Shown: piece after piece, positions 19,648-48,024 of the stretch
Layout: every line of letters starts with the position of its first letter
How positions within the stretch are numbered: the stretch's first letter is position 1
Virus record (IMG/VR): IMGVR_UViG_3300009073_000005
Location: 1-56,832 of that record
Length of the DNA stretch: 56,832 nt
Source: a virus
Direction: 5' to 3' (one strand)
Notes under the pieces: model-generated
The model's input: only the letters and a program-made list of their open reading frames with translations
The model's database searches: none
Told to the model about the DNA's origin: nothing
Program-made: the position numbers and the translations under genes

Positions 19648-19874
19648 CTTGAGCTGGCCTCGTCGTATAGATTTTCCATAAAATCACACATAGCAAAAAC
19701 ACTTTTGTCCCCGCTGAATATGTAAGAAAGGGCTACGTTTCTCGGGAGCGATAAGGTGCATCCGTAGTGCATGCCCACAATATAAGACTGAAGGATAATC
19801 TCGTTTATAGCGTCAGAAGTGTATCGTCCAAAGCTTGCCAAATTATCCCTCCGCCGGTTCTTCTTCCGGGTCAA
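19635..19874 (-). CDS. Hypothetical protein (79 aa)
   Basis: ORF overlapping both terS-like and terL ends. No motif recognised, so coding status is uncertain. Confidence 0.35.
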   Translation of the reverse strand: MTRKKNRRRDNLASFGRYTSDAINEIILQSYIVGMHYGCTLSLPRNVALSYIFSGDKSVFAMCDFMENLYDEASSRCRL

Positions 19875-20337
19875 CAGTTATGACTTCACCCTCCAGATGT
19901 TCCGGTATCTTTTTTCCTGCCGCCTTCAACATCGCCAGGGCTATGCTTTGAACCACAAGTGGACCGTCATATATCTCGTAGTCTTTCTTTGTCATTTCCT
20001 GATGAACGACTATAGGCGCGTCCGTGCCTTTTGTCTTCGCGATCCTAGACTCTATCTTTACCATCAAGTCCGCATCGCCATTTAACCTTGCAGAATTAAA
20101 CATATCCCTAAGTGATACCAGATTCTCGGTACGCTTACCTATGTCGTCAAACATATTCTCGCCTTCCGTCTTTTTGTCTATGATCATCTTAACGAAGTCG
20201 CGTGCCTGCGCCATAGTTAATCCGTTCTTATCGCATAAGTCATATGCAATATCGATCGGATTTTTGCGCTCCTTGAATCTCTCGACCACGTAGTCGCTTA
20301 ATATGCCACCGTACTGTAAGTCTTCATCCGAAACCAT
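19843..20337 (-). CDS. Putative terminase small subunit
   Basis: 164 aa just upstream of terL. Helical N-terminus with an HTH-like segment (GLTMAQARDFVKMI) and an acidic tail. The call is based on position. Confidence 0.45.
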   Translation of the reverse strand: MVSDEDLQYGGILSDYVVERFKERKNPIDIAYDLCDKNGLTMAQARDFVKMIIDKKTEGENMFDDIGKRTENLVSLRDMFNSARLNGDADLMVKIESRIAKTKGTDAPIVVHQEMTKKDYEIYDGPLVVQSIALAMLKAAGKKIPEHLEGEVITVDPEEEPAEG

Positions 20338-22891: not shown

Positions 22892-23042
22892 TTTTATTTA
22901 TACCACAAGCCAGCGTATTGGATATATCTAAAAACAGATCTGTATCATAATGAATCAAAAATGCTGCCCACTTTTCCTCGGTAAACGTTTTCAGTCTTTC
23001 CAGTTTGTACCTTTTCCCCATGTATTCAAAATTTACTTTCAT
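22839..23042 (-). CDS. Hypothetical protein (67 aa)
   Basis: 4-nt overlap with the recombinase stop. Confidence 0.45.
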   Translation of the reverse strand: MKVNFEYMGKRYKLERLKTFTEEKWAAFLIHYDTDLFLDISNTLACGINKIVQCSNDARQCTRTQPL

Positions 23043-23737
23043 GTTACCCCCGATATGTTGTTTTCTTTTTTTGAATTTCTTAATATGTATCCAACACGCC
23101 TGCTGTTGAATTCCTTACCCGTTCTTGTTTTGTGACCTTCGCTGTCTAGCTCGTTTGCTATCTTTCTGTGCGTGATACCTTTTGACTCCATCTCTAGGGC
23201 CTTCTCCAGTATGTAGGTCTCCATCTTATCGATGACTATGTTTTCACCGTCCGACGTGTAGCCATAGGGAAGGCACCCATCGACTTTGCCGTTCGACCTT
23301 CTGTTCTTTTTGTATGCCCGCATCCTTTCGCTGGCCTTCTCAGACTCATAGGCGGCGAGGCACATCGCGAGAGACCTCATAAGGCGGGCCTCCGGCGTGT
23401 TGTTGTTAAGGCCGACACTCGAAGCCTCCACGAGAAAGCACCCCCTCTTCATTATCATTTTTTCGATATTCAGGGCGTCCCTCAGGTCCCTTGAGAACCG
23501 GCACATCTTGGCAACAAGAACTATATCGCCAGACTCTAAGCTATCAAGCATCTCCGCGAACGCTGGCCGTCTCGACGGGTGCTTTTTTCCAGAAACAGCC
23601 CCGTCTTCGTACACTTTGACATCCAAGATTTCTCTTTCGTCGCAGTATTTTTTACAGGTTGCGATTTGTGTCTCCAGGCCGAGCCTAGTCTCTTTTTGTT
23701 TATTTCCAGAGACCCTTGTGTATATATGCGCCCTCAT
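23039..23737 (-). CDS. Serine recombinase (232 aa; resolvase domain plus a partial recombinase domain)
   Basis: IYTRVSGNKQ (catalytic Ser), GAVSGKK..RRPAF..GDIVLVAKMCRFSRD, then GCLPYGY..RRVGYILRN as seen in large serine recombinases. Confidence 0.85.
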   Translation of the reverse strand: MRAHIYTRVSGNKQKETRLGLETQIATCKKYCDEREILDVKVYEDGAVSGKKHPSRRPAFAEMLDSLESGDIVLVAKMCRFSRDLRDALNIEKMIMKRGCFLVEASSVGLNNNTPEARLMRSLAMCLAAYESEKASERMRAYKKNRRSNGKVDGCLPYGYTSDGENIVIDKMETYILEKALEMESKGITHRKIANELDSEGHKTRTGKEFNSRRVGYILRNSKKENNISGVT

Positions 23738-24239: not shown

Positions 24240-24278
24240 ATATTAATCTAGGAAAGCGTCATTGTAAAGTACTTTGAT
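24240..24278 (-). promoter_or_regulatory. Early leftward promoter Pa with palindromic operator
   Basis: Minus strand: TTTACA (24268-24263), 17 bp, TAATAT (24245-24240). Operator TGTAAAGTACTTTGAT at 24263-24278. ACTGGGAG SD downstream. Confidence 0.65.
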
Positions 24279-30171: not shown

Positions 30172-30486
30172 CTAAACCACCTCAAAAGCCATCTCAAGGT
30201 TGCCCAATGTCGCTTTTTTCGCCATTTCAAAGTCATCTCCAATCAATTCGGAATAAGCATCAAGAGAAGCCTCTATTACAATCTCAGAAAAGCATAAAAG
30301 CTTACTCCTTAGCGCATTTATTCCGAACTTCTTAACAAATTCGATGTCCTTGTTTAGTTCTGGCATTCCAATGTAACCGCCAAGCTCCCAATTATCCTGT
30401 GTCATCATGTGAGTGACGGTTTTGTATCTTTCTTTGTATTCTCTAGCCGAACCTGCGATCTCTATAATAATTTTTGCGTTTGTCAT
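30172..30486 (-). CDS. Hypothetical protein (104 aa)
   Basis: First gene after Pc. ACTGGGAGG SD, starts MTNAK. Confidence 0.6.
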   Translation of the reverse strand: MTNAKIIIEIAGSAREYKERYKTVTHMMTQDNWELGGYIGMPELNKDIEFVKKFGINALRSKLLCFSEIVIEASLDAYSELIGDDFEMAKKATLGNLEMAFEVV

Positions 30487-30508
30487 TTTGACCTCCCAGT
30501 CTGATATC

Positions 30509-30547
30509 AGATTAATTCATTGATTCGATGTTGTCAAATACTTTGCA
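30509..30547 (-). promoter_or_regulatory. Early leftward promoter Pc with operator variant
   Basis: Minus strand: TTGACA (30537-30532), 17 bp, TAATCT (30514-30509). Operator TGTCAAATACTTTGCA. A/T-tract DNA upstream at 30560-30600. Confidence 0.65.
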
Positions 30548-30979
30548 ACAGTTAATCACGATTTTTTTTAAAAATTTTCAATTTCAAATTTCGAATTTGG
30601 ATTAACAAAAACAAAAGATGGCCGATATTCGCTGGCTTTACAACTGTATCAAATTTTGACAAATAAATTTTGCGTGTAGATCGACCGTTTTAAGGGCTCA
30701 AAATGGTAAACGGACTTTTGGCGCAACGAGGGCGATTCTAAGGCCCGCTGTCGGCTCAGCGTCCACGTCATAGGGGCACACGGCGCACACCCCGCAGAAT
30801 CGAAACTGCGAAGCCTGGTGCGGTATTATGTTCTCAGGTGTGACCGTTTCACTGGGCGCAATGGTTGCGGGGTCGGTGCTTGGACTACCTCGTACACGAG
30901 AACCCAATAAAAACAAGGGGTTGCGGTTGATAGGCTAAATAAAAGTGTCTCATTCACCGCAAAACCGCTGTCTTATGCG

Positions 30980-31896
30980 CGTCGCACTTTATATTAAAGA
31001 AAAAGACCAATCAATGCGGGCACATACGATGCCGAAATTCTAAAGCGCGACATTTTGCACCCCCTAAATTGCCCTATTTCGTGTTTGTCGCGTTTTAGAT
31101 TCTCTTTTGTTTCCGGGGGGTTAGGTGCCAAAAAGTGCCCAAAAAAGTTAAAACGCGACAAATTGGGGGTAACACAATATTCCGCATCGACGAATTACCG
31201 TACACTCGCGCGTGTTTAATTATTAAAATAAATATATAGTTAACTCCCTTTATTTAGCGCCACTTATCCCCATGTCTTACCCCCTGAATACAATTCTGCT
31301 TTTTTGTGTGTTTTAAAGGCTTACCCCCCAATTTGTCGCACTTTACGTTTTTGAGGGGTGTTTTTGCGTGTAAGTATCTAATATCATTGACGAATCTAAA
31401 GTGCGACACGGTGGAATGCGGGTTTGCGGCGATGCGCCCCGAATAACCCAATGATATCGGTGTATTACATAAGTGCGACATTTTGGCAGATCGTTCTATT
31501 ATTTTGTCGCGTTGTCGCGCTTTAGATTCTAAAACCGCCACCTGGGTGCCATAATCGGGGTAGATCGTTGATATAAATCGAACGGCCTATCGCGTATATT
31601 TTAATCACATACACTATATCTTGGCCCGTTCGTGTGTGTTCACCGTACACCAAATAGGCCGACCTAATCTCGGGGATTTCGGGAAAGTTTGGTCTGCGTT
31701 TTTTGTGTACGGTCTGAATATTTGATTAGCACTGTATGATAAATAACACCGGAGCGTGCGCCCTTTATTGTATATATTAACCGAATGAGTGGTGTGCGGC
31801 CAAATACTTGTCAAAGTACTTTGAATTACCCCTGTCCGATATGATACACTTCGCGTTTTCAAGTTAAAGTGCGACAAAGTGTCGCGTTTTAGATTT
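30980..31896. repeat. Array of 11 copies of a 12-17-nt motif (GAATC)TAAA[G/A][T/C]GCGACA in both orientations
   Basis: Plus-oriented copies at 31036-31052, 31149-31160, 31392-31408, 31469-31480, 31865-31876. Minus-oriented copies at 30980-30991, 31086-31102, 31334-31345, 31505-31511, 31513-31529, 31880-31896. Confidence 0.85.
31809..31825. promoter_or_regulatory. Orphan operator-like palindrome inside the ORF-free segment
   Basis: TGTCAAAGTACTTTGAA shares the core AAAGTACTTT with the early operators, but no -10 box sits at 17 bp on either side. Confidence 0.4.
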
Positions 31897-32156
31897 TGCA
31901 TCATATTGATACAGAAATAGTGTCTCACCTGTAAAGCCAGAGCAACATATATGTTGCCCCAGGTATACATTAAAGGCCCCAATGTATACCCCAATGCACG
32001 GTCATGCACGCACCGATTTGTGCCTAATGCCGTCACGTGATAGGGTTAGGTGTGCCCGCATACTAACTAGCGAGCGCGTTCCGGGTCTAAGTCATCCAGG
32101 CATTCCCGGCCTAGCATGGGGATAGGTAAAAACCTCTGGTTGTCATAGGCGTAGCT

Positions 32157-32513
32157 ATGACCATTCTGGGTGTGTGTGTAAACCCTGGCGCGTGCTGTGG
32201 CCATCCGGTGCGGGTAATCACGGAGGGATGGATACCCGTCGAGATGGCTTTACCTATTTACAGGCCGTATATGGTGTGCAAGCGTCTATATATGATAACA
32301 AGAAAATACGACCAAATAACAGAAGAATTCACCGTTAAGAGTACGCTGTCCGGGGACAAGAAATCACTACAGGTTATCGTTAGCGGCGGCGATGAAAGTT
32401 ACGAATACAACCTGATGCGTGCCACAAAGCTTAGCCGGAAAAGGGTGTACTCTGGAATAGATCACGCCATAGGAAAGTACCGAACATTGCGGTGTCGTGA
32501 TTACATTGGATAG
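32157..32513 (+). CDS. Hypothetical protein (start uncertain; possibly an internal ATG)
   Basis: Plus-strand ORF in an otherwise leftward region with a weak RBS. The C-terminal two thirds look protein-like. Confidence 0.35.
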   Translation: MTILGVCVNPGACCGHPVRVITEGWIPVEMALPIYRPYMVCKRLYMITRKYDQITEEFTVKSTLSGDKKSLQVIVSGGDESYEYNLMRATKLSRKRVYSGIDHAIGKYRTLRCRDYIG

Positions 32514-32883
32514 ACCAACACCCGCCCAGACGTCACTATTTATCGGCGGGCTAGGCATACCGGTTTCTTTCAATGCAACCTGGGACGATGAATTTCAGGG
32601 CGCTTTTTTGGGTCCTGGTGTACCTACCCATTGTATAGTCGCGCCGCATTATTACGATAGCGCCGGGCAACACTTAGCCGCATCGATGATAAACACAATT
32701 TGCAAAATTGAAGGCTGGCTTATGATTTACACAGAACACGATCACAAGAACTACGGAGTACCGCTCGATCATGTCTATGTTGATATGGTGTTTAACCGGA
32801 GCGGTATATTTAAAGAAGAATACGGCAGCGCGTCCGTTATAACCTTTAGCTTTCGGCATGAGCACGTAAAAGCCCTCGACTAA
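32497..32883 (+). CDS. Hypothetical protein (128 aa, GTG start)
   Basis: Plus-strand ORF overlapping the previous one, followed at once by a strong terminator hairpin. Confidence 0.45.
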   Translation: MITLDRPTPAQTSLFIGGLGIPVSFNATWDDEFQGAFLGPGVPTHCIVAPHYYDSAGQHLAASMINTICKIEGWLMIYTEHDHKNYGVPLDHVYVDMVFNRSGIFKEEYGSASVITFSFRHEHVKALD

Positions 32884-32915
32884 GTGTTACACCTAAGTAA
32901 CACCCAATCGAGGGC
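32872..32915. terminator. Bidirectional terminator between convergent genes
   Basis: Outer stem GCCCTCGA/TCGAGGGC and inner stem GTGTTAC/GTAACAC, with T-rich runs on both sides. Confidence 0.65.
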
Positions 32916-32934
32916 CCTTTTGTACCTTTTCCGC

Positions 32935-33243
32935 CTATTCCTTAACGACAATGCTCCCATCGTTCATTAGCGTGTATTCGTATTCTTCACCCCATGACTC
33001 ATCGAAAGCAACAACCCCCCACCCGGTCGTGTCGGACGTGTCTAGGTTGTGTTTTTTTCCAAGAAAAACCGAACTGCGTAACAGTTGCGCGAATTTGTAA
33101 TTTGGGTCTGTCCCCCTTTTTGCTACAAACATCTTGTTGAATTCAACCAGCCATCCTGCGGTAGCCTCTGGGTATCCGTCCCAGTGCTTGTAAACCTTAG
33201 CCAAATTGAAACCTTCTATCTTTATCGTTGCTCGTGTTGCCAT
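32935..33243 (-). CDS. Hypothetical protein (102 aa)
   Basis: Last gene of the Pe operon. Confidence 0.55.
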   Translation of the reverse strand: MATRATIKIEGFNLAKVYKHWDGYPEATAGWLVEFNKMFVAKRGTDPNYKFAQLLRSSVFLGKKHNLDTSDTTGWGVVAFDESWGEEYEYTLMNDGSIVVKE

Positions 33244-33588: not shown

Positions 33589-33627
33589 AGTATAAACGAT
33601 CACTTTGCACTTGTAAAGTACTTTACA
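33589..33627 (-). promoter_or_regulatory. Early leftward promoter Pe with perfect palindromic operator
   Basis: Minus strand: TTTACA (33617-33612), 17 bp, TATACT (33594-33589). Operator at 33612-33627, extended to the 20-bp palindrome CTTGTAAAGTACTTTACAAG. Confidence 0.65.
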
Positions 33628-35085: not shown

Positions 35086-35124
35086 AGATTAACCTATCGT
35101 TTCTGTATTGTAAAGTACTTTACA
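35086..35124 (-). promoter_or_regulatory. Early leftward promoter Pf with perfect palindromic operator
   Basis: Minus strand: TTTACA (35114-35109), 17 bp, TAATCT (35091-35086). Operator at 35109-35124. Confidence 0.65.
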
Positions 35125-37444: not shown

Positions 37445-37464
37445 TTTGCCTCCCAGCTATATAA

Positions 37465-37503
37465 AGATTATCACCTATATTTATAAATGTAAAGTACTTT
37501 ACA
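37465..37503 (-). promoter_or_regulatory. Early leftward promoter Pg with perfect palindromic operator
   Basis: Minus strand: TTTACA (37493-37488), 17 bp, TAATCT (37470-37465). Operator at 37488-37503. Confidence 0.65.
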
Positions 37504-37638
37504 TATAAAAATTAAAGATTACTCATTTTGTTAACGGTCGGCGGTCCTTATGTTAAAAAATGGCGATTATTAAAATAAAGCACTTTAGGGAATTGTTCCC
37601 CCCTCCCGTATATATTAATACGGCTGTGATCTATATAT

Positions 37639-37677
37639 AGATTAGCATCCCGGTTTTCGATTGTAAAGTACTTTGAT
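37639..37677 (-). promoter_or_regulatory. Early leftward promoter Ph (tandem, upstream of Pg) with operator variant
   Basis: Minus strand: TTTACA (37667-37662), 17 bp, TAATCT (37644-37639). Operator TGTAAAGTACTTTGAT at 37662-37677. Confidence 0.6.
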
Positions 37678-37697
37678 TTGATTTATCGATTTTGTTG

Positions 37698-37726
37698 TTT
37701 ACATGTCTCGATTTGTGTAATAAAAA
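37698..37726 (+). promoter_or_regulatory. Candidate rightward promoter, divergent from Ph
   Basis: TTTACA (37698-37703), 17 bp, TAAAAA (37721-37726), upstream of the GGGAG RBS and the ATG at 37752. Confidence 0.35.
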
Positions 37727-37751
37727 TAACTCAAGACTTACGGGAGTTGAT

Positions 37752-38084
37752 ATGAAAGAAAAACAAAAAGAAGCGCTTGCTGTTCTTGAGTCGTGCATAA
37801 AAAGGCGAATAGGCGGCAATTTTAAAATGTCTGCATCAATATGCAAAGACTTCGACAATTACTGCGAAAGCAACGATTTTTGCAATTTAATGTTCGATGT
37901 ATATATAACCATGGAAGATGTGAGATTTTTCTCAATACCTAGGCTATACACAAGAATAGATCTTACGTTCTGCGAAGGCAGCGGCGAACCACAAGAAGAG
38001 GTGGACAGGGCAATACTTAACGCTTTTGGACTCCTGTACAGAATGAACGAAAAGAACAATGCAAGGTGGGATATCGATGAGTGA
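37752..38084 (+). CDS. Hypothetical protein (110 aa; start moved to an ATG with RBS)
   Basis: GGGAG lies 6 nt upstream of the ATG at 37752. The track start at 37692 is a TTG without an RBS. Confidence 0.55.
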   Translation: MKEKQKEALAVLESCIKRRIGGNFKMSASICKDFDNYCESNDFCNLMFDVYITMEDVRFFSIPRLYTRIDLTFCEGSGEPQEEVDRAILNAFGLLYRMNEKNNARWDIDE

Positions 38085-38643
38085 TCAAAAAGTCATAGAC
38101 ATGGAGCAGGTGGAGGAGTTTTCCATAACCCAATCAAGGGAGTCGATAGATGTTACTTCCGGTTTCGTCAGAGAGTACATACCAGGCGAAACAACTGATA
38201 TTATATCCTTCCTGCATGAAGGCACAACCTACAAAATGAAGTGTGAAAGGCTGCCGGGCGTGTCTGATGCCGGTAAAACATTTCGAAGAATAATGGCCGC
38301 CTCCAGGGCTTTGAACGTATTCGATGATAATCTTTGGCGCTATGGCGACAGCAGAGTGCCCCTAGACATGATCTCCAAAATAGAAGGGGGAAGTAGGCAA
38401 TGGCGAAATTTCGATCACCCGGAAACACCTGACTACATAGGAGAGCTCGTTATGGCCAAAATGAGCCCATTCACCTATAGCGATCACAGGCCGATAGAAA
38501 ATGAGGGATACCCGGAGCACGAGGTCGTTTCCCGAATAACCAAGACGGACGTTTTCAAGATGTACTCTGTAAACACGATCGAGCCCGTAATGCCTATCCA
38601 GGGCGTAAAGTACCTCGCAACCCGTTGGCGTCCCATTTCTTAG
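38077..38643 (+). CDS. Hypothetical protein (188 aa)
   Basis: AGGTGGG RBS upstream of the ATG at 38077. Overlaps the stop of the previous gene. Confidence 0.55.
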   Translation: MSDQKVIDMEQVEEFSITQSRESIDVTSGFVREYIPGETTDIISFLHEGTTYKMKCERLPGVSDAGKTFRRIMAASRALNVFDDNLWRYGDSRVPLDMISKIEGGSRQWRNFDHPETPDYIGELVMAKMSPFTYSDHRPIENEGYPEHEVVSRITKTDVFKMYSVNTIEPVMPIQGVKYLATRWRPIS

Positions 38644-38710
38644 CCATTAATGGTTTACAAAACATGAGCACTGTGCAATTTGTTTTTAACTTTTACTTAA
38701 GGAGAGTTTA

Positions 38711-38893
38711 ATGAAATTTTTATCTGCATTTATTATTTTATACGTTGCGGTTATGTTTTTTTACATATCGAAGCGGTTTTTCGATAGGTCAAAACCAGAG
38801 GACGGAAGCGTCGCTGAAAAGAACCTTAACAAGAAAAGCATAGTTACTGAAATCAAGGAAACTTTACATGACCTCGGAGGCATGAATGACTAA
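38711..38893 (+). CDS. Small membrane protein (60 aa)
   Basis: AAGGAGAG RBS. N-terminal TM helix FLSAFIILYVAVMFFYI. Overlaps the start of the SPFH gene. Confidence 0.6.
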   Translation: MKFLSAFIILYVAVMFFYISKRFFDRSKPEDGSVAEKNLNKKSIVTEIKETLHDLGGMND

Positions 38894-39683
38894 ATTAATC
38901 ACTATACTTTGTTTTGCTTTTATCTCATCGGGTTGCGCCTATGAGACGGTTTCACCGGGACACAAGGGGGTCCAGGTTTCGTGGGCAGGTGAAACTAATA
39001 TGAAAAGAGTTTACTCCGAAGGATATCACGGCGGAATGCACTGGCTCATTGACGACATGGTCGAGTATGATTGCCGGGAGCAGACTGCTGTTGCCAAATT
39101 TCATTTTAATGACGCTAACAACATGGTGACTGGTGTTGAGATTGCAGTCGATTATAGCAACGACCCCGATCGTGTGAACCTCTTACACACCAAGATATCC
39201 GACGTTAAAACTAAAATGGAAAAAACGATCAAGAGCGCCGGAAAAGAGGTTGTCCCAAGTTACGCCGCTGTGGATTTAAACCTCACAAAGAGGGGCGAAG
39301 CGGAAGAAAGACTTGCTGAAATACTCTCTGACGAGTTCCCGGAGTTCTTTCTTTTACTGAAGAGGGTTCAGATAACCGACGTAGACATTCCCAGTGTTAT
39401 ATCCGAACAAGCGATGCGAACTGCGGAGCAAATAGAAAAGAACAAGCTAGCGGCCGAGATGGCAGAGGAAAAAACCAATTTAGGTCATGCAATCGTAGCG
39501 GAGGCAAAAGCTAAAGCAGAAGCGGCAAGATACGAGGCTGAGGCTGCCAAGATGCTATCGACACCGGAGATCATAAAGCTCCGAGAAATAGAGGTCGAAG
39601 CACTATGGGCCCAGAGCGGAAATTCCAAGTACGGATCTCATAATATGTTCGGAACCGCAAACGCTTTTAAGCTGGTAAAATAG
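38886..39683 (+). CDS. SPFH / Band-7 (prohibitin/HflC-like) lipoprotein
   Basis: Signal plus lipobox ILCFAFISSGC. SPGHKGVQV..EGYHGGMHWLIDDMVEYDCREQT..VEIAVDYS..VQITDVDIP, then an A/E/K-rich helix, as in SPFH proteins. Confidence 0.7.
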   Translation: MTKLITILCFAFISSGCAYETVSPGHKGVQVSWAGETNMKRVYSEGYHGGMHWLIDDMVEYDCREQTAVAKFHFNDANNMVTGVEIAVDYSNDPDRVNLLHTKISDVKTKMEKTIKSAGKEVVPSYAAVDLNLTKRGEAEERLAEILSDEFPEFFLLLKRVQITDVDIPSVISEQAMRTAEQIEKNKLAAEMAEEKTNLGHAIVAEAKAKAEAARYEAEAAKMLSTPEIIKLREIEVEALWAQSGNSKYGSHNMFGTANAFKLVK

Positions 39684-39690
39684 TGATTTC

Positions 39691-39765
39691 GGACGGGTAG
39701 TTCAGCGGTAGAGCAGTCGGCTCATAACCGATCAGTCGCGGGTTCAAATCCCGCCCCGTCCACCA
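39691..39765 (+). tRNA. tRNA-Met (anticodon CAT at 39723-39725), elongator type or tRNA-Ile2 precursor, CCA encoded
   Basis: Hand-folded cloverleaf. Acceptor GGACGGG/CCCGTCC, D arm GTTC-AGCGGTA-GAGC, anticodon arm GTCGG-CTCATAA-CCGAT, T arm GCGGG-TTCAAAT-CCCGC, then ACCA. Confidence 0.9.
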
Positions 39766-39814
39766 TTTGCGCGTCTTTTTAGCATTCTGCGCGCGATTAG
39801 GCCCTCCCTGGGTG

Positions 39815-39871
39815 CCGTCCGGTAGGCAAAGCTGATTTAAGCTTGCTCATTATCCGGGCGGATTTTGTTTT
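39815..39871 (+). terminator. Long hairpin plus T-run downstream of the tRNA
   Basis: CCGTCCGG (39815-39822) pairs with CCGGGCGG (39854-39861), with an inner AAGC/GCTT stem, followed by ATTTTGTTTT. Confidence 0.5.
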
Positions 39872-39980
39872 ACTTATAGCTTTTTAGTGCTACAATAGAG
39901 TGACAGTACCCAACACGCTACCCATTAGAACAGCGTCCCAGGTTGGGTCATTTTTATTTGCATTAAAAACGGGAGAAATA

Positions 39981-40175
39981 ATGGCATTTTTTGAGACTGA
40001 TTTTAAATTTGGGGACTCGTGCTTAGGGAAAACAAGTTCAACGATTAAAATGGAACATTCAGATGTTGTTGTTTTTGATAGCTTTTTTAGTGGTAAAAAC
40101 CTGATCCTTATGAGATTAATAAGTGCATTTAAAGAATACCCAAAACTTGATAGTTGTTTCTGGTTCAAGGGTTAG
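39981..40175 (+). CDS. Hypothetical protein (64 aa), AT-rich
   Basis: GGGAG lies 5 nt upstream of the ATG at 39981 (MAFFETDFKFG). The overlapping minus-strand ORF 39890..40168 has no RBS. Confidence 0.5.
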   Translation: MAFFETDFKFGDSCLGKTSSTIKMEHSDVVVFDSFFSGKNLILMRLISAFKEYPKLDSCFWFKG

Positions 40176-40185
40176 TTTATTTTTT

Positions 40186-40257
40186 GAGTCTTTAGTGTAA
40201 CGGTAGCACAGGCCCAGTGTGGGCGCATCAAGAGCAGGTTCGACTCCCGCGAGACTC
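40186..40257 (+). other. Degenerate tRNA-like element (72 nt) lacking a foldable anticodon arm
   Basis: Acceptor GAGTCTT/GAGACTC, D arm GTGT-AACGGTA-GCAC, T arm GCAGG-TTCGACT-CCCGC (one A-C mismatch). The central GGCCCAGTGTGGGCGCA gives no 5-bp stem with a 7-nt loop. Confidence 0.4.
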
Positions 40258-40276
40258 TTTAAGCTTGGAGGTTGTT

Positions 40277-40486
40277 ATGAGAATAAAAAGAATACTGTCA
40301 AGAAGCAGAAGAGACCTGGAATGCGAATATATTTGTGATTTCTGCGGTCACGAGCACGTGGACTATGGGTATGATGATCTCAATTTTCACGAAGAGGTAA
40401 TACCTAATTTTAAATGCCCTGATTGCGGAAAGAATGGTGGCAAACACAAGAGTTCACCAAAGTATGAGGACTCCAAGGTTATTTAA
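40277..40486 (+). CDS. Zinc-ribbon protein (69 aa)
   Basis: GGAGG RBS upstream of the ATG at 40277. CDFCGH .. CPDCGK, two CxxC pairs. Confidence 0.6.
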   Translation: MRIKRILSRSRRDLECEYICDFCGHEHVDYGYDDLNFHEEVIPNFKCPDCGKNGGKHKSSPKYEDSKVI

Positions 40487-40694
40487 GTTTTGATTGTATC
40501 TCGTACATGAGAGCTTGCATCGACTTAAATTCCCTGTTGAGAGACTCTATCTCGCTAGACTGGTGTTTCTCGGCAGAGGCAAGTCTTGATTTCAGCTTGA
40601 ATATCTTTGTCGAGTAAAATGTCATACCGGCCACAACCGCAATTATGACGATCAACCTCTCGACTCCAGCCAGGTAGTAATTAGCGCTGCTCAT
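40479..40694 (-). CDS. Membrane-anchored coiled-coil protein (71 aa), paralogue of 40691..41008
   Basis: ERLIVIIAVVAGMTF TM segment followed by a coiled coil. Confidence 0.55.
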   Translation of the reverse strand: MSSANYYLAGVERLIVIIAVVAGMTFYSTKIFKLKSRLASAEKHQSSEIESLNREFKSMQALMYEIQSKLK

Positions 40695-41008
40695 TCTAGT
40701 ATCATATCATCCGTTGGATAATATCTTTTCCCGTTTCTGTAGTGAGGCATGCGATCGTGCTTTTCTATCTTGTTGATAAAATATCTTCTGACCTCGGACA
40801 GTGAGTCTCGCATTCTATCAGAATAGTTTTTTAGGTTTCTAATCTCTACGTCCTGGACCTGCTCAACAATTGTCACCCTTTCGTTCAAGTCTGATATCAC
40901 GGTAGCGTATCCGAATGTGGCCGCAACCAGGGCAACGATAACCGTTATCCGCTCGGCCTTTCCGACGTGATCGTGACTCATTAATTCAGCTTTTTCTTCT
41001 GAGCTCAT
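40691..41008 (-). CDS. Membrane-anchored coiled-coil protein (105 aa from the ATG at 41008)
   Basis: ERITVIVALVAATFG TM segment followed by a coiled coil. 4-nt overlap with the downstream paralogue. Confidence 0.55.
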   Translation of the reverse strand: MSSEEKAELMSHDHVGKAERITVIVALVAATFGYATVISDLNERVTIVEQVQDVEIRNLKNYSDRMRDSLSEVRRYFINKIEKHDRMPHYRNGKRYYPTDDMILE

Positions 41009-41101
41009 TCCACACCATACACCCAATCTTTAAAAAATGTAAGCAGAACTGGGCCGTCAAACTAAAAAAGACCCATGGGGGTTTAAATAACTGCAAAATA
41101 G

Positions 41102-41323
41102 GTGTATCAGTTAAATATGAGTTCAGAAGAAGTTTTCAACGCATATATGATAAACAGCCTTTCGGAGCATATGGATCTAGACCATGAAACTGCAAAAGCA
41201 AAGGTCTCCTGCTATTTCAAGGGCGATTGCTGTTCTACTTATGCAAAGTATCTCGACATGTGCTCACTAACCTATAACGGTCCATCTTTTGACCTAACCG
41301 GAGGATATCTTGATCCAAAGTAA
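41102..41323 (+). CDS. Hypothetical protein (about 70 aa; start GTG 41102 or ATG 41117)
   Basis: Plus-strand ORF overlapping the next gene's start. Confidence 0.45.
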   Translation: MYQLNMSSEEVFNAYMINSLSEHMDLDHETAKAKVSCYFKGDCCSTYAKYLDMCSLTYNGPSFDLTGGYLDPK

Positions 41324-42221
41324 AAAACGCGTTCTCGTTCTGCTGCTAATCGGGGCACTTTTAAGTCTTGGAATGGCATCGACATCTGCCGTTATGGACG
41401 CAACATTTAACCCCCATTCCGGTTTAAACGTCCTTACCTCATGGGACCACTTAAACGCGACAAGGTACGACAGTTCAGATCGTGTTCGTGACGCATGGGC
41501 TCAGACCAATTACACAAGTCACCACACCGACAACATAGATCGACCGAAGACTGGAAAAACAACCCCTGTTCTTCTCGATGCTCGAAAAGCAAGAGATGGT
41601 GAACTCGAGGAGGCGTACGCCCTTATCGAAGAATACCAGCTCGAATACCAACCTGTACAGGGGGAGCGGAGTAATGGCAAAAAGTACAAGTTTAACAAAC
41701 TGTTTAATTTCGATGATATAAACCAGTGGCGAATTCACCACCCTGTCCACTACGTAAGAACGATAGACGAGAACGGGGTAGCGGGGGAAAGCACGACGGT
41801 TAAAGACCTGGCGCTCCAGCTTTGTATGACCGATGCTGGGAAATACTACGAGCCCGCCTCGTCGGATACATGTACCCCCGACGTAAAGATATCAAGGCCA
41901 GAGACCTATACCATATTCGCCGAGTACGACGACAAGGGCGGTTTCAATCTAGGTACGCACCTCTCCCAGATAAACTACAGTAAATCGGGTCACATAAAAA
42001 GCATGGGGAACGGGGACATCTATTTTGAAAAGGGGCCAAAAGAAGACCCCTCTCCGCTTATTCGGTTTTTGGCGCGAGCCGGGATAATCGACTATTACGA
42101 TGAATTCGTAGAGGAGAATTCGGAGGGTGATAAATTTTTAAGGGTAAGACACGTAGGAAGCCATGGATACGGTGATGTGATGTTTATGCCAATTCTCACA
42201 AAAGCGCAGGCTGGGCTTTAA
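41310..42221 (+). CDS. Secreted protein of unknown function (303 aa, TTG start)
   Basis: GGAGGA lies 4 nt upstream of the TTG. Signal peptide KKRVLVLLLIGALLSLGMASTSAVMDA. Confidence 0.65.
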   Translation: MIQSKKRVLVLLLIGALLSLGMASTSAVMDATFNPHSGLNVLTSWDHLNATRYDSSDRVRDAWAQTNYTSHHTDNIDRPKTGKTTPVLLDARKARDGELEEAYALIEEYQLEYQPVQGERSNGKKYKFNKLFNFDDINQWRIHHPVHYVRTIDENGVAGESTTVKDLALQLCMTDAGKYYEPASSDTCTPDVKISRPETYTIFAEYDDKGGFNLGTHLSQINYSKSGHIKSMGNGDIYFEKGPKEDPSPLIRFLARAGIIDYYDEFVEENSEGDKFLRVRHVGSHGYGDVMFMPILTKAQAGL

Positions 42222-42298
42222 TCTATAACTTCATGTATTGACTACTGCATGTAAAAATGTGATAAAGGTTAAGACAGACCTCCAGGTAATGTCACCTA

Positions 42299-42335
42299 GG
42301 GCCGCTTTCAACTCCCAGTTAGGCGGCCCTTTTTA
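42299..42335 (+). terminator. Rho-independent terminator
   Basis: GGGCCGC (42299-42305) and GCGGCCC (42323-42329) with a 17-nt loop, then TTTTT. Confidence 0.7.
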
Positions 42336-42356
42336 TTAAATTTAAAGGACGTAAAA

Positions 42357-42776
42357 ATGACAAAAAAGAGAGCAAGCACAAAAAAGAAACCGCAAAAAAC
42401 AAACAAGGCGGTAAAGCCAACACTCCGTCAAGCGATAAAGGCAAAGGCAGAGGGTAAGGATGAAAAACCTAAACGTTTAACTCTCAAATCACTTCGCCAG
42501 GAGTCAATAGAAAGTGGCAACAAGTTATTGATAACTATCAGACAGCTTTACCAGGAGTTTAGCAGTCATCGCGAGGAGTCAATAGAGCAGATCGAAGATG
42601 TAAAAAAAGTGGTCGAGATGCTTGGTGACAAGATTGACGAAAATAAGGGAGCGGACGATGGAAGATATATGCACGTAGAGGCAAATACGGGGGCGATACG
42701 GATAAACCAGCTATTTATAGCCATAACCTTCTGCGCGTCACTGGCGAACATCGCCCTGCATTTTCTTTCTAAGTAG
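42357..42776 (+). CDS. Tail-anchored membrane protein, lysine-rich N-terminus (139 aa)
   Basis: AAAGGA RBS. K-rich N-terminus and C-terminal TM segment LFIAITFCASLANIALHFL. Confidence 0.55.
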   Translation: MTKKRASTKKKPQKTNKAVKPTLRQAIKAKAEGKDEKPKRLTLKSLRQESIESGNKLLITIRQLYQEFSSHREESIEQIEDVKKVVEMLGDKIDENKGADDGRYMHVEANTGAIRINQLFIAITFCASLANIALHFLSK

Positions 42777-43179
42777 TGCCGCGAGCTTCTTTAAATAACC
42801 TGTAGAGTTCCCCTTTTCTTTTGGGGAAATCTCGGGTTATTTCTTTTATGAACGGCACCATGTTTGACTTGTTCTCGTCGATGGACCCGGCAATTGCCAT
42901 TTGCCCGGATATCTTCTCCCGAGCCGTCAGAACGAAGGATATTTCTATAAGCTTCTGAGCAACCTCTAGCTGGTTGTAGAATTTTATATCCATACCGTTT
43001 CCTATGTCCGCATCGTTAAGCGATATAAGATAAGCCATCGAGTTCCCCTTGTCTGTCAGGAACTCTATCTTTTTACAGACAACGCCCCAGTCTACAAGTT
43101 TTCTGCACAATTGCTTAGGTATAGAGAATACGCTTGCGATCTCTTTCTCGTTATAAGTTTTTGAGGTAACACTTCCCAT
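42769..43179 (-). CDS. Hypothetical protein, divergent from the replication operon (candidate regulator)
   Basis: 136 aa. Segment EIASVFSIPKQLCRKLVDWGVV looks HTH/winged-helix-like. The call is weak. Confidence 0.45.
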   Translation of the reverse strand: MGSVTSKTYNEKEIASVFSIPKQLCRKLVDWGVVCKKIEFLTDKGNSMAYLISLNDADIGNGMDIKFYNQLEVAQKLIEISFVLTAREKISGQMAIAGSIDENKSNMVPFIKEITRDFPKRKGELYRLFKEARGTT

Positions 43180-43214
43180 TCAACACTCTAGCATAAGGTG
43201 CCGAATTTTAACGA

Positions 43215-43242
43215 TTGAAGACGTTTGTTAAATTTTTATTCT
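43215..43242 (+). promoter_or_regulatory. Candidate promoter of the replication operon
   Basis: TTGAAG (43215-43220), 16 bp, TATTCT (43237-43242). Confidence 0.3.
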
Positions 43243-43325
43243 AATGTTTTGTTCATTTGGCTTGTCGATATGGAAAAACGGTGCCATTGTCTTATTTCAA
43301 TCTTTACGGATCGGGAGGCCCAATA

Positions 43326-46223
43326 ATGAGTATTAGTGACTTGAAAGATCGAAGAGATCTTGCAAAGCAATTTCTGGAGGTAATAAAGGGGTCGGAAGAT
43401 AAGCGGATAGGGATAACATCGCTACCGGGTGCAAAGAAAAAAGACGGCACCTCTTACCCTAATTACAACGGCGTTTTTGACAGCATACCGGCAGCGATAG
43501 ATGCGATCTTCGAACACGAGAGAATGAAGTTCGACGAAAAGCCGCAGTTCTTTCCATTTGTTAACAAATTAAACCCTGACACCGTAGAGGTAACGAATGG
43601 TTTTGTCAGGGGAATGTCCATAAAGCAGAACCAGATCGATGCGATCACGGTTCTGTGCGTGGACATTGACCCACCGGACAATTGCCCGCGACCGGTTGAG
43701 CGATCTACCTTGAACGAGTGCATAGATGCTGCAAAATTTATCGACCTGAAAATGAGAGAAAAACATTACCCGTCTGCGCTCATAACATCGAGCGGAAACG
43801 GTGCGCAGATGTTTTATAAGTGCGGCGAAGTTGAATATTTACCAGAGGAAGCCGAAGAGGATCTTGGGCATGTTTTCTTAAGGTTTATGCAGTTACACAG
43901 CGCAAACCCAAGACACGGTTTCGACTTTGACGTAACCGTTGACGTTAGCGTAGGGAACGCGGTAAGGATCATGCGCCTTCCCGGCACTAGAAACTGGAAA
44001 AAAAGAAATCGCGAAGGTAAGGATATCGTTTTTAGAACAGCTGATATCGTAACCGACATGAAACACTTTAACGCGCAACCTATACACCCGGACATGGTGA
44101 GTCTCCTTCGCGAATGGGGCAATGAAAACCCCAGCCATAAAAAGAAGACATTCTTTGGCGAGCTAAAGGCTGCGCCGATAACCGAGAAAGACTACGAAGA
44201 GGCCGAGGCTCGATGCTCATATGAGACAAGGATAAAGAGAGCCATAAAGTATGTTAAATCATGGGACCCGGAAGGAGAGGGAAATCGTTCAAATACCGTA
44301 TTCTCGACATCTGGACAATTTCTTACGCGCGGACTGCTTATAAGGATCGATGACGCCGCAAAGATAATGCACGAGCATTGGAATGTTAGAAACAAAAGCC
44401 CGCTACCGTTCGGTGGTCCCGGAATACAGAGCGGGCTGTGGTATCACACCTATAGATCTGCGATGCACGGAAAGAACGTGATGATGCTCGGGTCCGAGAT
44501 AGGCGAGTTATCAACAAAAGAGATTGAAGACGAGGCAAAAAGACTGGCCGGTTGGAATGAGGAGGCTGCCAGAAAACTTTCGATTGAGGCGTTGTGCCAC
44601 GCCGATATGGAAGTTGAGAACCTAATAAAACATACCAGTGAATTGGCGGACAAGGACCTGATACGGTCAGAGTCGAGAGGCACATACTTTGAGAAGTGCG
44701 CAATGACACCGGATATGATATGGGCGCCTGGCGGCAAGTCAAACGTGCTAAATCTTTTTACAGAATTCTGTATGGGTGCAAAGGGTGATATGCCCGCTGG
44801 AAGCTTGCTGGCGTCGCTGTCGCTTTTCTCGCAGCTTTTAAGCAAGAAATACAGCACACCCATATTCGAGCGACTCAAGGGCAATCTGGACCTCTGGAAT
44901 TGCCACATTGCGCGATCTGGTACTGGTAAGTCTTTTCCAGTCAAAAAGATATACAAGGCAGTGAAGGGTGCTGGTTGCGAATATATGATCGGAGGTGAGA
45001 CGATCGTGTCCAAAAAGTCTGCGCTTAATAAGTTGGTCATGTCGCCTGGTCACGGTGTTCTTTTCCCTATCGATGAAGCGGGCGATTTTTTCAGGGGGTT
45101 GCGGGAGGGAGGCGCAGGTTATCAGAAGGCAATAACCACCTTCCTAAAGGCTACTTATTCGGTGGATGATTATTGCGACGATATGTCGAACGAAGAATTC
45201 AAAGCGCAGAAGGGAAAGAAAAAGGTATCAATAAAGGTTGATAGGCCGTGTTTAGGAATTCACGCATCAATGACACCTGGTCAATTCAAGGATCTGTTCG
45301 ATGACCGGGACAAGGAGTCAGGCATGGCTAACAGGTGGCTGTTTCTTTACGACCTCATAATGCTCGTGGAGGACGAAATAGTGACGGACCCTAACCGAAA
45401 CGGGGGCTGCTTCGAGGAGGCGCTTGTGCCTTCCAAAGTAATTGACTTTATGAAGCTCATACCTGAAAAGTCTGAGCTGCCAGAGGGGTCAAAGCTTCAA
45501 GAGTACGATAAAGAGACAGGTGCAATAAAGGAGCCCGAGGGCGAAGATATAACGCCTTACTTTAATGTGGCGGACGTCATCGTTTGCGATTTCTCTGAGC
45601 TTGCCCATAGTGTGGCCTGTAACGTTAGAATGTTTGAGAACAAGATAAGGAAAAGACTGGATATAACGAGGAGCTATGTTCGGGAAAACAGCCTCGGCAG
45701 GTATTATCAAAACATAGTCAAGATCGCTTCCATATCCGCAATATGTCAATCCAAGAATTTGAAGAAGGTCATAATATCGGAGGACGATATGCGATGGGCG
45801 GCAAATATCGTAAATAGGAGCGTCGCTACTTTCTGGTCGATAGACTCCGAGTCTTCTTCGGTTTCATCTAACGAGAGGTACTATGACGAGCTCATTTCAG
45901 AACTAGAAAAAAGGTTTTCTCTGATGTCAGAGGAAGAAAGGATTTACAAGGGAGGTCTAACAAAAAGAGACCTTGTTAGGAACTCCAGAATGTGCGCATC
46001 GCTAAAGAAGACGCGAGTCAGTCACGGTGTGACGCAGCTGGACTCCGTGATCGATATGGCCCTCGCTAACGGTGACATCGTGGAAGTTTCAAAGGGCGAT
46101 CAGATAAAAAGAATAAGGGTAAGAGGCGAAGAGGCGCCGAAGCGAATAACCGAGAGATACTTGCCAACGTACAAGGACAGAAACGACCCAATGCTGGATA
46201 TGATGATATCAAAAAGATTTTAA
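43326..46223 (+). CDS. Bifunctional primase-polymerase (AEP) / helicase (DUF3987-like P-loop)
   Basis: GGGAGG RBS upstream of the ATG at 43326. AEP motifs VLCVDID, SGNGAQMFY, RIMRLPGTRNWK. Walker A ARSGTGKS and Walker B FPIDEAGDF in the C-terminal half. Confidence 0.8.
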   Translation: MSISDLKDRRDLAKQFLEVIKGSEDKRIGITSLPGAKKKDGTSYPNYNGVFDSIPAAIDAIFEHERMKFDEKPQFFPFVNKLNPDTVEVTNGFVRGMSIKQNQIDAITVLCVDIDPPDNCPRPVERSTLNECIDAAKFIDLKMREKHYPSALITSSGNGAQMFYKCGEVEYLPEEAEEDLGHVFLRFMQLHSANPRHGFDFDVTVDVSVGNAVRIMRLPGTRNWKKRNREGKDIVFRTADIVTDMKHFNAQPIHPDMVSLLREWGNENPSHKKKTFFGELKAAPITEKDYEEAEARCSYETRIKRAIKYVKSWDPEGEGNRSNTVFSTSGQFLTRGLLIRIDDAAKIMHEHWNVRNKSPLPFGGPGIQSGLWYHTYRSAMHGKNVMMLGSEIGELSTKEIEDEAKRLAGWNEEAARKLSIEALCHADMEVENLIKHTSELADKDLIRSESRGTYFEKCAMTPDMIWAPGGKSNVLNLFTEFCMGAKGDMPAGSLLASLSLFSQLLSKKYSTPIFERLKGNLDLWNCHIARSGTGKSFPVKKIYKAVKGAGCEYMIGGETIVSKKSALNKLVMSPGHGVLFPIDEAGDFFRGLREGGAGYQKAITTFLKATYSVDDYCDDMSNEEFKAQKGKKKVSIKVDRPCLGIHASMTPGQFKDLFDDRDKESGMANRWLFLYDLIMLVEDEIVTDPNRNGGCFEEALVPSKVIDFMKLIPEKSELPEGSKLQEYDKETGAIKEPEGEDITPYFNVADVIVCDFSELAHSVACNVRMFENKIRKRLDITRSYVRENSLGRYYQNIVKIASISAICQSKNLKKVIISEDDMRWAANIVNRSVATFWSIDSESSSVSSNERYYDELISELEKRFSLMSEEERIYKGGLTKRDLVRNSRMCASLKKTRVSHGVTQLDSVIDMALANGDIVEVSKGDQIKRIRVRGEEAPKRITERYLPTYKDRNDPMLDMMISKRF

Positions 46224-46251
46224 TGGGTTGACAAAAACGAGGGATAGAAAT

Positions 46252-46668
46252 ATGAAAAGGTATGATTACAATAAAGATAAGAATGTTAGCGGAGGAGGTT
46301 GGAGTGTCACGGCAAACGATCTACTCACTAATAAAGAAGGGAATGATAAAACAGTTAAAACCTGGACTGGTAAGAGTCCAGAGCGTTACCTTTGTGAGAA
46401 ACATGATACAGGAGAGGTATCGAAATTGATAAGCGAGAATTGGGCAGAGTTTGATTTTGAGACCGGCGATTTCTTGCTTAAAAAAACGGAAAACAACGAC
46501 CCGCAAACCGAGACGGAGGTCCTGTCACACGTTTTTGAATTGGTAACTATAATGGACTGGATACTGCATGGTTTCGATGTCATGGAAAAAGCACAAGTAG
46601 AGATGGAAAAAGTAATAGCAAGCGCCCATGAGGACGCATACAACGGAGAGATGGATTATGGCGTTTGA
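46252..46668 (+). CDS. Hypothetical protein (138 aa)
   Basis: GAGGGA lies 7 nt upstream of the ATG at 46252. Confidence 0.55.
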   Translation: MKRYDYNKDKNVSGGGWSVTANDLLTNKEGNDKTVKTWTGKSPERYLCEKHDTGEVSKLISENWAEFDFETGDFLLKKTENNDPQTETEVLSHVFELVTIMDWILHGFDVMEKAQVEMEKVIASAHEDAYNGEMDYGV

Positions 46669-47368: not shown

Positions 47369-47531
47369 TGATTGCATCAAGAAACGTATCGGACGTCATT
47401 CGTTTGATCATAGTTTTTATTGCGCTGATTGTGATGTAGTCATTGTCGATTTCGACTTAGAGGGCTACACCAATCATTTATACGAGGTTTTTAGGTCCAG
47501 AAGGATCTACTTAAACGAAACTAACAACTAA
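47349..47531 (+). CDS. Possible small Cys/His protein (60 aa, TTG start)
   Basis: GAGG lies 8 nt upstream of the TTG. DDC..H..H..CADC pattern. No in-frame ATG. Confidence 0.35.
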   Translation: MKKTQHDDCIKKRIGRHSFDHSFYCADCDVVIVDFDLEGYTNHLYEVFRSRRIYLNETNN

Positions 47532-47553: not shown

Positions 47554-47563
47554 GAAAAAAAAT

Positions 47564-48016: not shown

Positions 48017-48024
48017 CATTTAAC

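Follow-up and report, generated by a model that had tools for sequence, protein, structure and literature searches.

The initiators Rep and PriRep of the Staphylococcus aureus pathogenicity islands (SaPIs) are self-loading helicases of the AAA+ pre-sensor II insert clade, which bind 6-12 iterons arranged in two groups of opposite orientation round a central AT-rich region and melt this region without ATP (PMC9371898). These initiators, fused to the primase in SaPI5, recognise the sites by means of a C-terminal winged-helix domain (PMC9371898). In the satellite PLE (phage-inducible chromosomal island-like element), a 2.7-kb non-coding region with four families of repeats holds the origin. Of these families, the initiator binds one alone, as its iteron. 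Replication cannot proceed without the region, and the region plus repA is enough to support it (PMC7145576). Proteins of the family DUF3987 are MCM-like (SF6) replicative helicases, often fused to a primase and carrying a winged helix-turn-helix (wHTH) domain at their C-terminus (PMC4889955). The present work concerns a gene-free segment at 30548-32156 of the virus record IMGVR_UViG_3300009073_000005, of which the whole stretch (positions 1 to 56,832, here called the window) was analysed, and the array of 17-nt sites that this segment contains. The core of the segment, about 30980-31530 and possibly the distal sites to 31990, is tentatively read as the replication origin of the phage, a cis-acting DNA site; we hold this reading to be plausible, though somewhat short of probable.

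The first-pass annotation, made from the sequence alone, had described the segment as devoid of credible open reading frames (ORFs) amid a tightly packed early region. The gap is real, and only its bounds need correction: the non-coding stretch is slightly longer, running from 30487 to about 32291. It is the sole long non-coding gap of the genome and by far the largest, the other gaps in the genome-wide listing being small genes overlooked by the crude gene caller. Inside it, the ORF listing has exactly the three minus-strand ORFs that had been counted (72 aa, 30698-30916; 95 aa, 31254-31541; 140 aa, 31614-32036). On a 3-periodic Markov coding score trained on 33 long genes of the same genome, the values are 6.75 ± 1.65 for real genes (leave-one-out), as compared with -7.4 ± 5.5 for shadow ORFs. 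The three ORFs, at -3.8, -3.0 and -8.5, respectively, behave like shadow ORFs, and coding-like periodicity is absent by this score from every frame of the segment. When both strands of 30480-32320 were scanned, no start codon was found to have a Shine-Dalgarno site except that of the real gene at 30486 (GGGAG), in agreement with what had been stated for the three ORFs. Hidden small genes were rejected on this basis.

Ten stop-to-stop frames of at least 54 aa were compared with Pfam and PHROGs at E<=0.1, with no match apart from one meaningless value of 0.097. The segment was also compared by blastn with the INPHARED phages and the PLSDB plasmids, and nothing was found. A pseudogene tract was rejected because no frame gives a Pfam or PHROG signal and the blastn search of phages and plasmids is blank. 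The annotation had foreseen that relatives might carry intact genes at this position, with the segment as their decayed form; no such relatives appeared in these collections. On the right side, the ORF called at 32157 is coding only from about 32292. Its 73-aa form scores 6.3, versus 2.15 for the 118-aa form (32157-32513), and the JGI gene call likewise gives the 73-aa form, so that the 118-aa ORF is probably mis-started; neither start has a Shine-Dalgarno site.

The window represents a circular assembly of the phage genome, with a unit length of 56,709 bp after removal of a 123-nt terminal overlap. The same phage is present as contig k141_383880 of ENA ERZ27241782, and the region 29.5-34.7 kb is found with 100% identity in two further assemblies (Logan SRR5754787 and JGI 3300005647). 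Since the gene-free segment is identical across three independent assemblies, it is real DNA, neither an assembly artefact nor a chimera. The terminal overlap is an exact direct repeat of 123 nt (1-123 = 56710-56832), as left by the assembly of a circular or terminally redundant genome.

The most conspicuous component of the segment is the 17-nt motif GAATCTAAARYGCGACA, present in 11-12 copies, all within 30980-31896 and in both orientations; this count takes in one copy with an indel and half copies (table 1). The consensus, about 17-20 nt long and asymmetric, is (G/A)AATCTAAA-R-Y-GCGACA-AA, from 11 copies and one degenerate copy. Nine of the 10 genome matches to TAAARYGCGACA with at most one mismatch fall in 30980-31891, versus 1.28 expected genome-wide, and the array reported by the first-pass annotation at 30980-31896 is therefore highly non-random. 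A position weight matrix gives 21-28 bits for the nine full copies and no more than 17 bits for any site elsewhere in the genome. An additional match at 41451 was dismissed: it reaches 8 bits only and lies inside the gene for a protein with a signal-peptide-like N-terminus. No other intergenic region of the genome holds an iteron-like array.

Orientation alternates along the array, and the copy spacings are irregular over its whole length (11-352 bp). The (-,+) pairs 1/2, 3/4 and 5/6 are spaced 61, 63 and 63 bp, respectively, and copies 10 and 11 pair in a 13-bp stem around a loop of 3 nt. A CRISPR or tandem array is excluded by the presence of copies in both orientations and by the irregular spacing; Tandem Repeats Finder (TRF) gives only three trivial arrays of two to four copies (four overlapping rows). 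Two further candidates were rejected. A resolvase res site does not fit because the half-sites of the close pairs, with TGTC innermost, are oriented against the usual geometry of such sites, and because the serine recombinase, a protein of only 232 aa, is encoded 7 kb away. Transposon ends do not fit an array of alternating orientation in a genome that assembles as a circle.

In all of the 11-12 copies, a 10-nt core, TAAA..GCGACA, is near-invariant while the flanks have diverged, which argues for selection on the sites. This bears on whether the segment is largely non-functional DNA, composed of decayed ORFan genes or acquired filler, with the repeats as remnants of local inverted duplications. 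In favour of this view, recognisable features are missing from the 0.26-kb GC-rich part and from the stretch 31530-31860 (0.33 kb), and because nearly all genes of this phage are ORFans, a dead one would not be recognisable by homology. Against it stand the preserved core between diverged flanks, the symmetric arrangement of the sites round an AT tract (see below), the lack of coding periodicity in any frame and the tight packing of phage genomes, this being the sole such gap in the present one. We regard non-functional DNA as very improbable.

Two clusters of 17-nt sites flank an AT tract of 30-40 bp, which is the second least stable 40-bp window genome-wide, with a stability of -0.966 kcal/mol per step versus a mean of -1.366 ± 0.10 (4 SD away). 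The tract is bracketed by the arms of the longest inverted repeat of the genome, each 43 nt long and 74% complementary. These arms hold copies 4(+) and 5(-), the two copies that flank the tract in opposite orientation, and the core is thus mirror-symmetric about roughly 31247; orientation also alternates inside each cluster. Two other motif families occur in the same region. Five of the 18 genome copies of ACCCCC lie within 270 bp, where about 0.09 would be expected, and all three genome copies of ACCGTACAC are inside the segment, two of them (31642 and 31705) making an imperfect inverted repeat of 26 nt (31642-31667 / 31688-31713).

Table 1. Sites, motifs, promoters and genes in and around the gene-free segment, with the transcription units of the phage (window coordinates).
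Feature	Position	Strand	Remarks
Copy 1 of 17-nt motif	30980-30996	-	left cluster (30980..31160)
Copy 2	31036-31052	+	left cluster
Copy 3	31086-31102	-	left cluster
Copy 4	31144-31160	+	left cluster
Copy 5	31334-31350	-	right cluster (31334..31529)
Copy 6	31392-31408	+	right cluster
Copy 7	31470-31480	+	right cluster; 1-nt deletion
Copy 8	31505-31513	-	right cluster; half copy
Copy 9	31513-31529	-	right cluster
Degenerate copy	31849-31862	-	distal group, 330-bp gap after copy 9
Copy 10	31860-31876	+	distal group
Copy 11	31880-31896	-	distal group
AT tract TTTAATTATTAAAATAAATATATAGTTAACT	31215..31255		candidate DNA-unwinding element
Longest inverted repeat of genome	31127..31367		arms 31127-31169 / 31325-31367
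Second motif, ACCCCC/GGGGGT	31059(+), 31116(-), 31165(-), 31279(+), 31323(+)		range 31059..31328, around AT tract
Third motif, ACCGTACAC	31197(+), 31642(+), 31705(-)		range 31197..31713
A/T-tract DNA	30550..30680		AAATTTC tandem, T8/A5 runs; upstream of leftward promoter
GC-rich spacer	30690..30950		up to 58% GC vs 46% genome mean; no ORF, no repeat family
Leftward promoter of 36-kb unit	30509..30547	-	-35 TTGACA 30532-30537, 17-nt spacer, -10 TAATCT 30509-30514
TGTAAAGTACTTTACA family	24263-24278, 30532-30547, 33612-33627, 35109-35124, 37488-37503, 37662-37677		
Perfect 14-bp palindrome TCAAAGTACTTTGA	31811..31824	+	symmetric variant of promoter/operator palindrome
Adjacent perfect dyads	31942-31957; 31962-31990		GCAACATATATGTTGC; GGTATACATT-N9-AATGTATACC
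73-aa ORF	32292-32513	+	coding score 6.3
128-aa ORF	32497-32883	+	coding score 2.5
Bidirectional intrinsic terminator	32871..32925		GCCCTCGA...TCGAGGGC, inner hairpin, T-run on each strand
Leftward transcription unit, 36 kb	from 30486, wrapping round circle to 51131	-	
Small rightward unit	32292 to 32883	+	
Leftward block	37444 to 32935	-	
Rightward replication block	37752 to 51204	+	
988-aa primase-helicase-type protein	43257..46223	+	DUF3987 (MCM-like SF6) helicase domain

To the left of the array, the first-pass annotation had distinguished A/T-tract DNA and a GC-rich stretch with many hairpins. The former is clear (82% AT in 30550-30599, with the AAATTTC tandem detected by TRF as a period-7 array at 30572-30598) and is probably curved or UP-like promoter-upstream DNA. 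For the latter, the composition holds (58% versus 46%) and the abundance of hairpins does not: it folds no better than dinucleotide shuffles, with z-scores of -0.08 on the plus strand and +0.31 on the minus strand. The sole folding signal of the segment, z -3 to -4 across 31800-32040, coincides with palindromes and is equal on both strands, as expected of DNA dyads. A scan with Rfam 15 gave no family at the gathering score and none even at E<=10; the best sub-threshold match is RAGATH-13, with 19.5 bits versus a gathering score of 80. A structured RNA was rejected on these two grounds, and the suggestion that the segment encodes RNA, for which an Rfam scan had been proposed, found no support in them. 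ARAGORN predicts only a tRNA-Met at 39691. This lone tRNA gene (CAT; 39691-39765, plus strand) lies directly 3' of a gene of the Band_7/SPFH family (38886-39683).

A transcribed leader or non-coding RNA could nevertheless be imagined, in which the 17-nt boxes form alternative hairpins or pair in trans and so control the rightward ORFans or immunity, as in the CI RNA of P4 with seqA/seqC and the c4 immunity RNA of P1. Because the boxes are in both orientations, any transcript would contain complementary pairs: the complementarity is 14/14 for pair (3,4) and 12/12 for pair (5,6), each with a 51-nt loop, and (10,11) gives the 13-bp stem. The two variable positions of the box change only by transitions, both members being AC in 3/4 and GT in 5/6, and the GC skew is mildly positive on the plus strand over parts of the segment. 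On the other side, no Rfam family appears at E<=10, folding exceeds that of shuffles only at the strand-symmetric palindromes, no convincing promoter or terminator brackets a transcript, and the box occurs in no other transcript that could be a target. Wobble compatibility is inconsistent on one strand, holding in three of the four adjacent head-to-head pairs (2/3, 4/5, 7/9, 10/11; p about 0.3). We give such a transcript a small chance. The double change between AC and GT in pairs 3/4 and 5/6 could be covariation or the result of a simple inverted duplication. Read as compensatory, it is the one hint of a regulatory device of a new type, either an RNA of about 1 kb or an extruded-DNA structure of complementary boxes, analogous to an expanded P4 CI-RNA/seqA-seqC system or P1 c4; this seems to us slighter still.

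If the core is an origin, an initiator is required, and we infer that the most plausible trans-acting candidate for the 17-nt sites is the 988-aa primase-helicase-type protein. Its residues 516-948 match PHROG 3022 'DNA primase' (6.4e-28) and Pfam DUF3987 (1.9e-11), and the protein has no PDB or NCBIfam match. No sequence of Pfam, PHROG, NCBIfam or PDB matches the N-terminal ~515 residues (43257-44801), which might form a primase or origin-binding domain of a new type. There is no DNA polymerase among the larger ORFs scanned against PHROGs and Pfam (precomputed Pfam for 20-40 kb), and neither these Pfam data nor the scans of other blocks show a plasmid Rep family. To our knowledge, no phage origin has been characterised for the DUF3987 helicase family.

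The following sequence of events can be proposed. A phage-encoded initiator would bind the 17-nt sites, the best candidate being the 988-aa primase-helicase by means of the C-terminal winged helix typical of DUF3987 helicases. Binding and oligomerisation on both flanks would melt the AT tract, helicase rings would be loaded in opposite directions and the primase part would prime. A host polymerase, proposed because no phage polymerase gene was seen, would then take over, and the Sak4, exonuclease and RusA recombination genes may support later stages of replication. Origins typically carry several types of site, and the ACCCCC and ACCGTACAC motifs may bind accessory or host factors.

Several observations lead to this reading: the two site clusters flank the second least stable 40-mer in mirror symmetry; two further families of motifs are either restricted to the same 0.7 kb or over-represented there; the genome encodes a DUF3987 primase-helicase and no polymerase among the ORFs scanned. 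The segment is non-coding, the sole long gap, and its 17-nt sites score comparably nowhere else, with neither an RNA nor a pseudogene signal. The layout is that of the SaPI origins, and PLE sets a precedent for a kilobase-scale, repeat-rich origin region.

Other observations weigh against it. There are no relatives in any collection searched and hence no comparative support. The array is 11.3 kb from the primase-helicase gene, which lies downstream with an opposing operon in between and no non-coding DNA abutting it, whereas SaPI origins abut rep. The sites are long (17 nt), alternate within clusters and lie 45-63 bp apart, unlike the direct repeats of classical iteron origins, which are short or contiguous. 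There is no enrichment of DnaA boxes (15 versus 12.3 expected, with one imperfect box in the region), for which reason a DnaA-dependent origin was rejected. A second plausible origin location is the AT-rich (31% GC) divergent early-promoter region at 37445-37751: no DNA in the genome is less stable, and the cumulative GC skew reaches its minimum there (37606). Apart from two tandem leftward promoters, this region has no repeats. Finally, many phage origins lie within genes and are invisible to this kind of analysis.

The 16-bp palindrome TGTAAAGTACTTTACA has six copies in the genome (three perfect and three variant), versus 0.31 expected. It overlaps the -35 box (TTTACA/TTGACA) of a leftward promoter with a 17-nt spacer and a -10 box TAATCT/TATACT; this overlap was read in five copies and inferred for the copy at 24263 from an identical 19-nt motif. 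A leader CTGGGAGG or CTAGGAGG follows the promoter in three copies (30532, 33612 and 35109). By its sequence, TGTAAAGTACTTTACA looks like a phage-wide early promoter that is also the operator of a dimeric regulator. The leftward promoter at the left border of the segment, a good one of the sigma-70 type, sits in a degenerate copy of this palindrome (TGTCAAATACTTTGCA). No rightward promoter of the TGTAAAGTACTTTACA class was found for the replication block.

In the right part of the segment, the variant TCAAAGTACTTTGA faces rightward and is followed only by a poor -10 box (GATACA); it may serve as an operator, or else drive the rightward unit of the 73-aa and 128-aa ORFs as a weak promoter. The two strong palindromes previously reported at 31942-31990 are both among the few perfect dyads of the genome: GCAACATATATGTTGC is one of four perfect 16-bp palindromes, the other three being promoter/operators, and GGTATACATT-N9-AATGTATACC is one of three loci with perfect inverted-repeat arms of at least 10 nt. 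It may be that the rightmost 350 bp serve the rightward unit as control or leader region and take no part in the core function of the array. The palindrome at 31811, pair 10/11 and the dyads would more likely control this unit, or activate the origin by transcription.

An alternative to the origin is a regulatory binding array, at which some phage DNA-binding protein, not an initiator, would have its multi-operator, sink or silencing site. The product of the 73-aa or the 128-aa ORFan or a 59-aa HTH_17/MerR-like protein could bind there; the array would then titrate this regulator or govern the switch from one of the two flanking units, the 36-kb leftward one and the rightward ORFans, to the other. 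The segment does lie between divergent units, with the leftward promoter on one side and rightward ORFs from 32292 on the other, and the operator-palindrome variant and the two perfect dyads are just upstream of the rightward genes. The C1 operators of P1 are also asymmetric 17-bp sites, single or in inverted pairs. However, promoter control does not call for eleven sites, distributed over 0.9 kb with an easily melted AT tract at their centre, no 17-nt copy overlaps a recognisable promoter, the sites occur nowhere else in the genome, and the neighbouring ORFans show no DNA-binding fold or family. We consider a regulator array unlikely, although it deserves more weight than the other alternatives discussed here.

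The two proteins encoded at the right border of the segment are ORFans. AlphaFold2 models the 73-aa protein with a pLDDT of 68 (beta-beta-beta-alpha) and the 128-aa protein with a pLDDT of 49, too low for structure search; a Foldseek search with the 73-aa model gave no significant match, only non-significant ones of the dsRBD type. Between the convergent genes for the 128-aa (+) and 102-aa (-) proteins lies a terminator, which, as judged from its sequence, insulates the segment from the leftward operon starting at 37.4 kb. The 102-aa protein (32935-33243, minus strand), with a weak match to phrog_1987, is the only one near the segment with many relatives. There are 66 in IMG/VR, up to 64% identical, none of them syntenic and none sharing another gene with the phage; the gene appears to be a mobile single-gene module.

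A packaging region or physical genome end (a cos site or the boundary of direct terminal repeats) was also considered. The 17-nt sites would then be bound by the small terminase subunit, and GGTATACATT-N9-AATGTATACC, a perfect dyad with a 9-nt G+C-rich spacer that we take to resemble cosN-type symmetry, would be the cleavage site. The contig is circularly assembled, which leaves the true ends unfixed; the segment heads 36 kb of co-oriented genes, among them those for terminase, portal and tail; and in several phages with the nearest TerL (36-37% identity), TerL is 20-25 kb from record coordinate 1. Position speaks against it: TerL (18259-19647) and a candidate TerS (19843-20337, assigned by position only and without family match) are 10-12 kb away with about 30 genes in between, whereas pac and cos sites are usually directly upstream of terS or inside it. 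An AT-rich centre with mirror-image flanking sites is, moreover, a feature of origins and not of cosB. The packaging function put forward earlier, at 11 kb from the terminase genes, is thus improbable.

Clustered repeats in both orientations also resemble some centromeres, and the segment might be the plasmid-type partition site of a phage-plasmid. The precomputed Pfam data (20-40 kb) and the scans of other blocks contain no ParA, ParB, ParM/ParR, plasmid Rep or integrase, and no PLSDB plasmid matches the segment; with no ParA or ParB found, we give this partition function hardly any credence. As for the view that the segment acts in cis, it is indeed non-coding and unique, with repeats clustered round an AT tract, while its partition and packaging variants are disfavoured; among the cis options listed by the annotation, origin and regulator-binding array are the more likely ones.

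Relatives of the phage were sought in several collections. The blank blastn result with the segment is paralleled by a tblastn search of phages with the primase-helicase, which gave no match. Among 5.8 billion proteins, the 104-aa and 128-aa flanking proteins and the 988-aa protein have only identical or near-identical copies, and the 128-aa protein has no homologue among 1.84 billion cluster representatives. For the 73-/128-aa unit, the sole match of the protein searches is a 99%-identical variant of the 128-aa query on a 16.1-kb JGI contig. Scans of IMG/VR with the 104-aa, 221-aa and 128-aa proteins found nothing, and the promoter palindrome has only three unrelated matches there. Patterns of paired 17-nt sites were searched in IMG/VR, GTDB genomes and JGI metagenomes, and yielded only isolated chance hairpins without common proteins.

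The core AARYGCGACA occurs in four copies each in two unrelated metagenome-assembled genomes, of an Anaerovoracaceae bacterium and an Epsilonproteobacteria bacterium. The loci, at 6646-6875 (two separate hairpin pairs) and 159-5774, have no proteins in common with the phage, and these copies are treated as chance or an unrelated repeat element.

The genome is that of a tailed phage. Its recognisable genes encode a portal, TerL, the DUF3987 primase-helicase-type protein, a RadD-like SF2 helicase, a Sak4 annealase, an exonuclease, RusA and two adenine methyltransferases; nearly all the remaining genes are ORFans, and the nearest TerL of a GenBank phage is 38% identical. A 232-aa serine recombinase (23039-23737, minus strand) matches only the N-terminal ~230 residues of large serine recombinases (CcrB, 9-230 of 542; XisF) and may be either an integrase that has been truncated or split or one of the small resolvases or invertases. 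Apart from it, no integrase or repressor was recognised in the genome.

The first-pass annotation had regarded the segment as the most likely location of something undescribed. Its sequence is new and without relatives, but in layout it fits a class of element already well known, the iteron plus AT-rich origin at which a self-loading primase-helicase acts. If the origin reading is correct, a cis-element would for the first time be matched to a phage primase-helicase of the DUF3987 (MCM-like) type, and this in a lineage without cultured or sequenced relatives. It would indicate that such origins can be built from long, widely spaced, alternating sites far from the initiator gene. Origin prediction for phages from metagenomes would profit, as would work on the positioning of self-loading helicases. 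The 17-nt site with the primase-helicase is a protein-DNA pair open to direct testing. The impact remains modest in that iteron plus AT-rich origins are well known and no new principle is shown.

Compared with described origins, the array shares some features with each of several types. In classical iteron origins (lambda ori; RK2 oriV, P1 oriR and pSC101), initiator sites of 17-22 bp lie beside an AT-rich unwinding element, and the RK2 origin also has a G+C-rich stretch. The iterons are direct repeats in a helical phase of about 22 bp, usually accompanied by DnaA boxes, and the rep gene is adjacent or overlapping. The phage array differs from the plasmid iteron origins (RK2, P1, F and pSC101) in its alternating sites, irregular long spacing, lack of DnaA-box enrichment and in that the scans found no Rep-family gene. 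The alpha primase-helicase of P4 binds repeated sites in both orientations at two cis elements, ori and crr, kilobases apart. P4 thus sets an example both of an initiator gene apart from its origin and of a distal cluster of sites, comparable to copies 10/11. Its sites are octamers (TGTTCACC), crr consists of two direct repeats of 120 bp and alpha has an SF3 helicase, whereas the phage has 17-nt sites and a DUF3987 domain.

A further similarity is with the SaPI origins, whose Rep and PriRep are the most thoroughly studied bacterial self-loading helicases of a comparable kind, and where repeated sites likewise form two groups round an AT-rich centre; on the protein side, the phage has its MCM-like DUF3987 primase-helicase-type protein. 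The SaPI iterons are 5-6 nt long, closely packed and immediately downstream of rep, whereas the phage sites are 17 nt long, 45-63 bp apart and alternating, span 0.55-0.9 kb and are 11 kb from the helicase gene. There is no sequence similarity between the SaPI iterons and the phage array, and binding of an initiator to the latter is predicted. PLE differs in being a satellite, whereas the present element belongs to a phage; with it, the segment shares a kilobase-scale, gene-free region of multiple repeats in a compact mobile genome.

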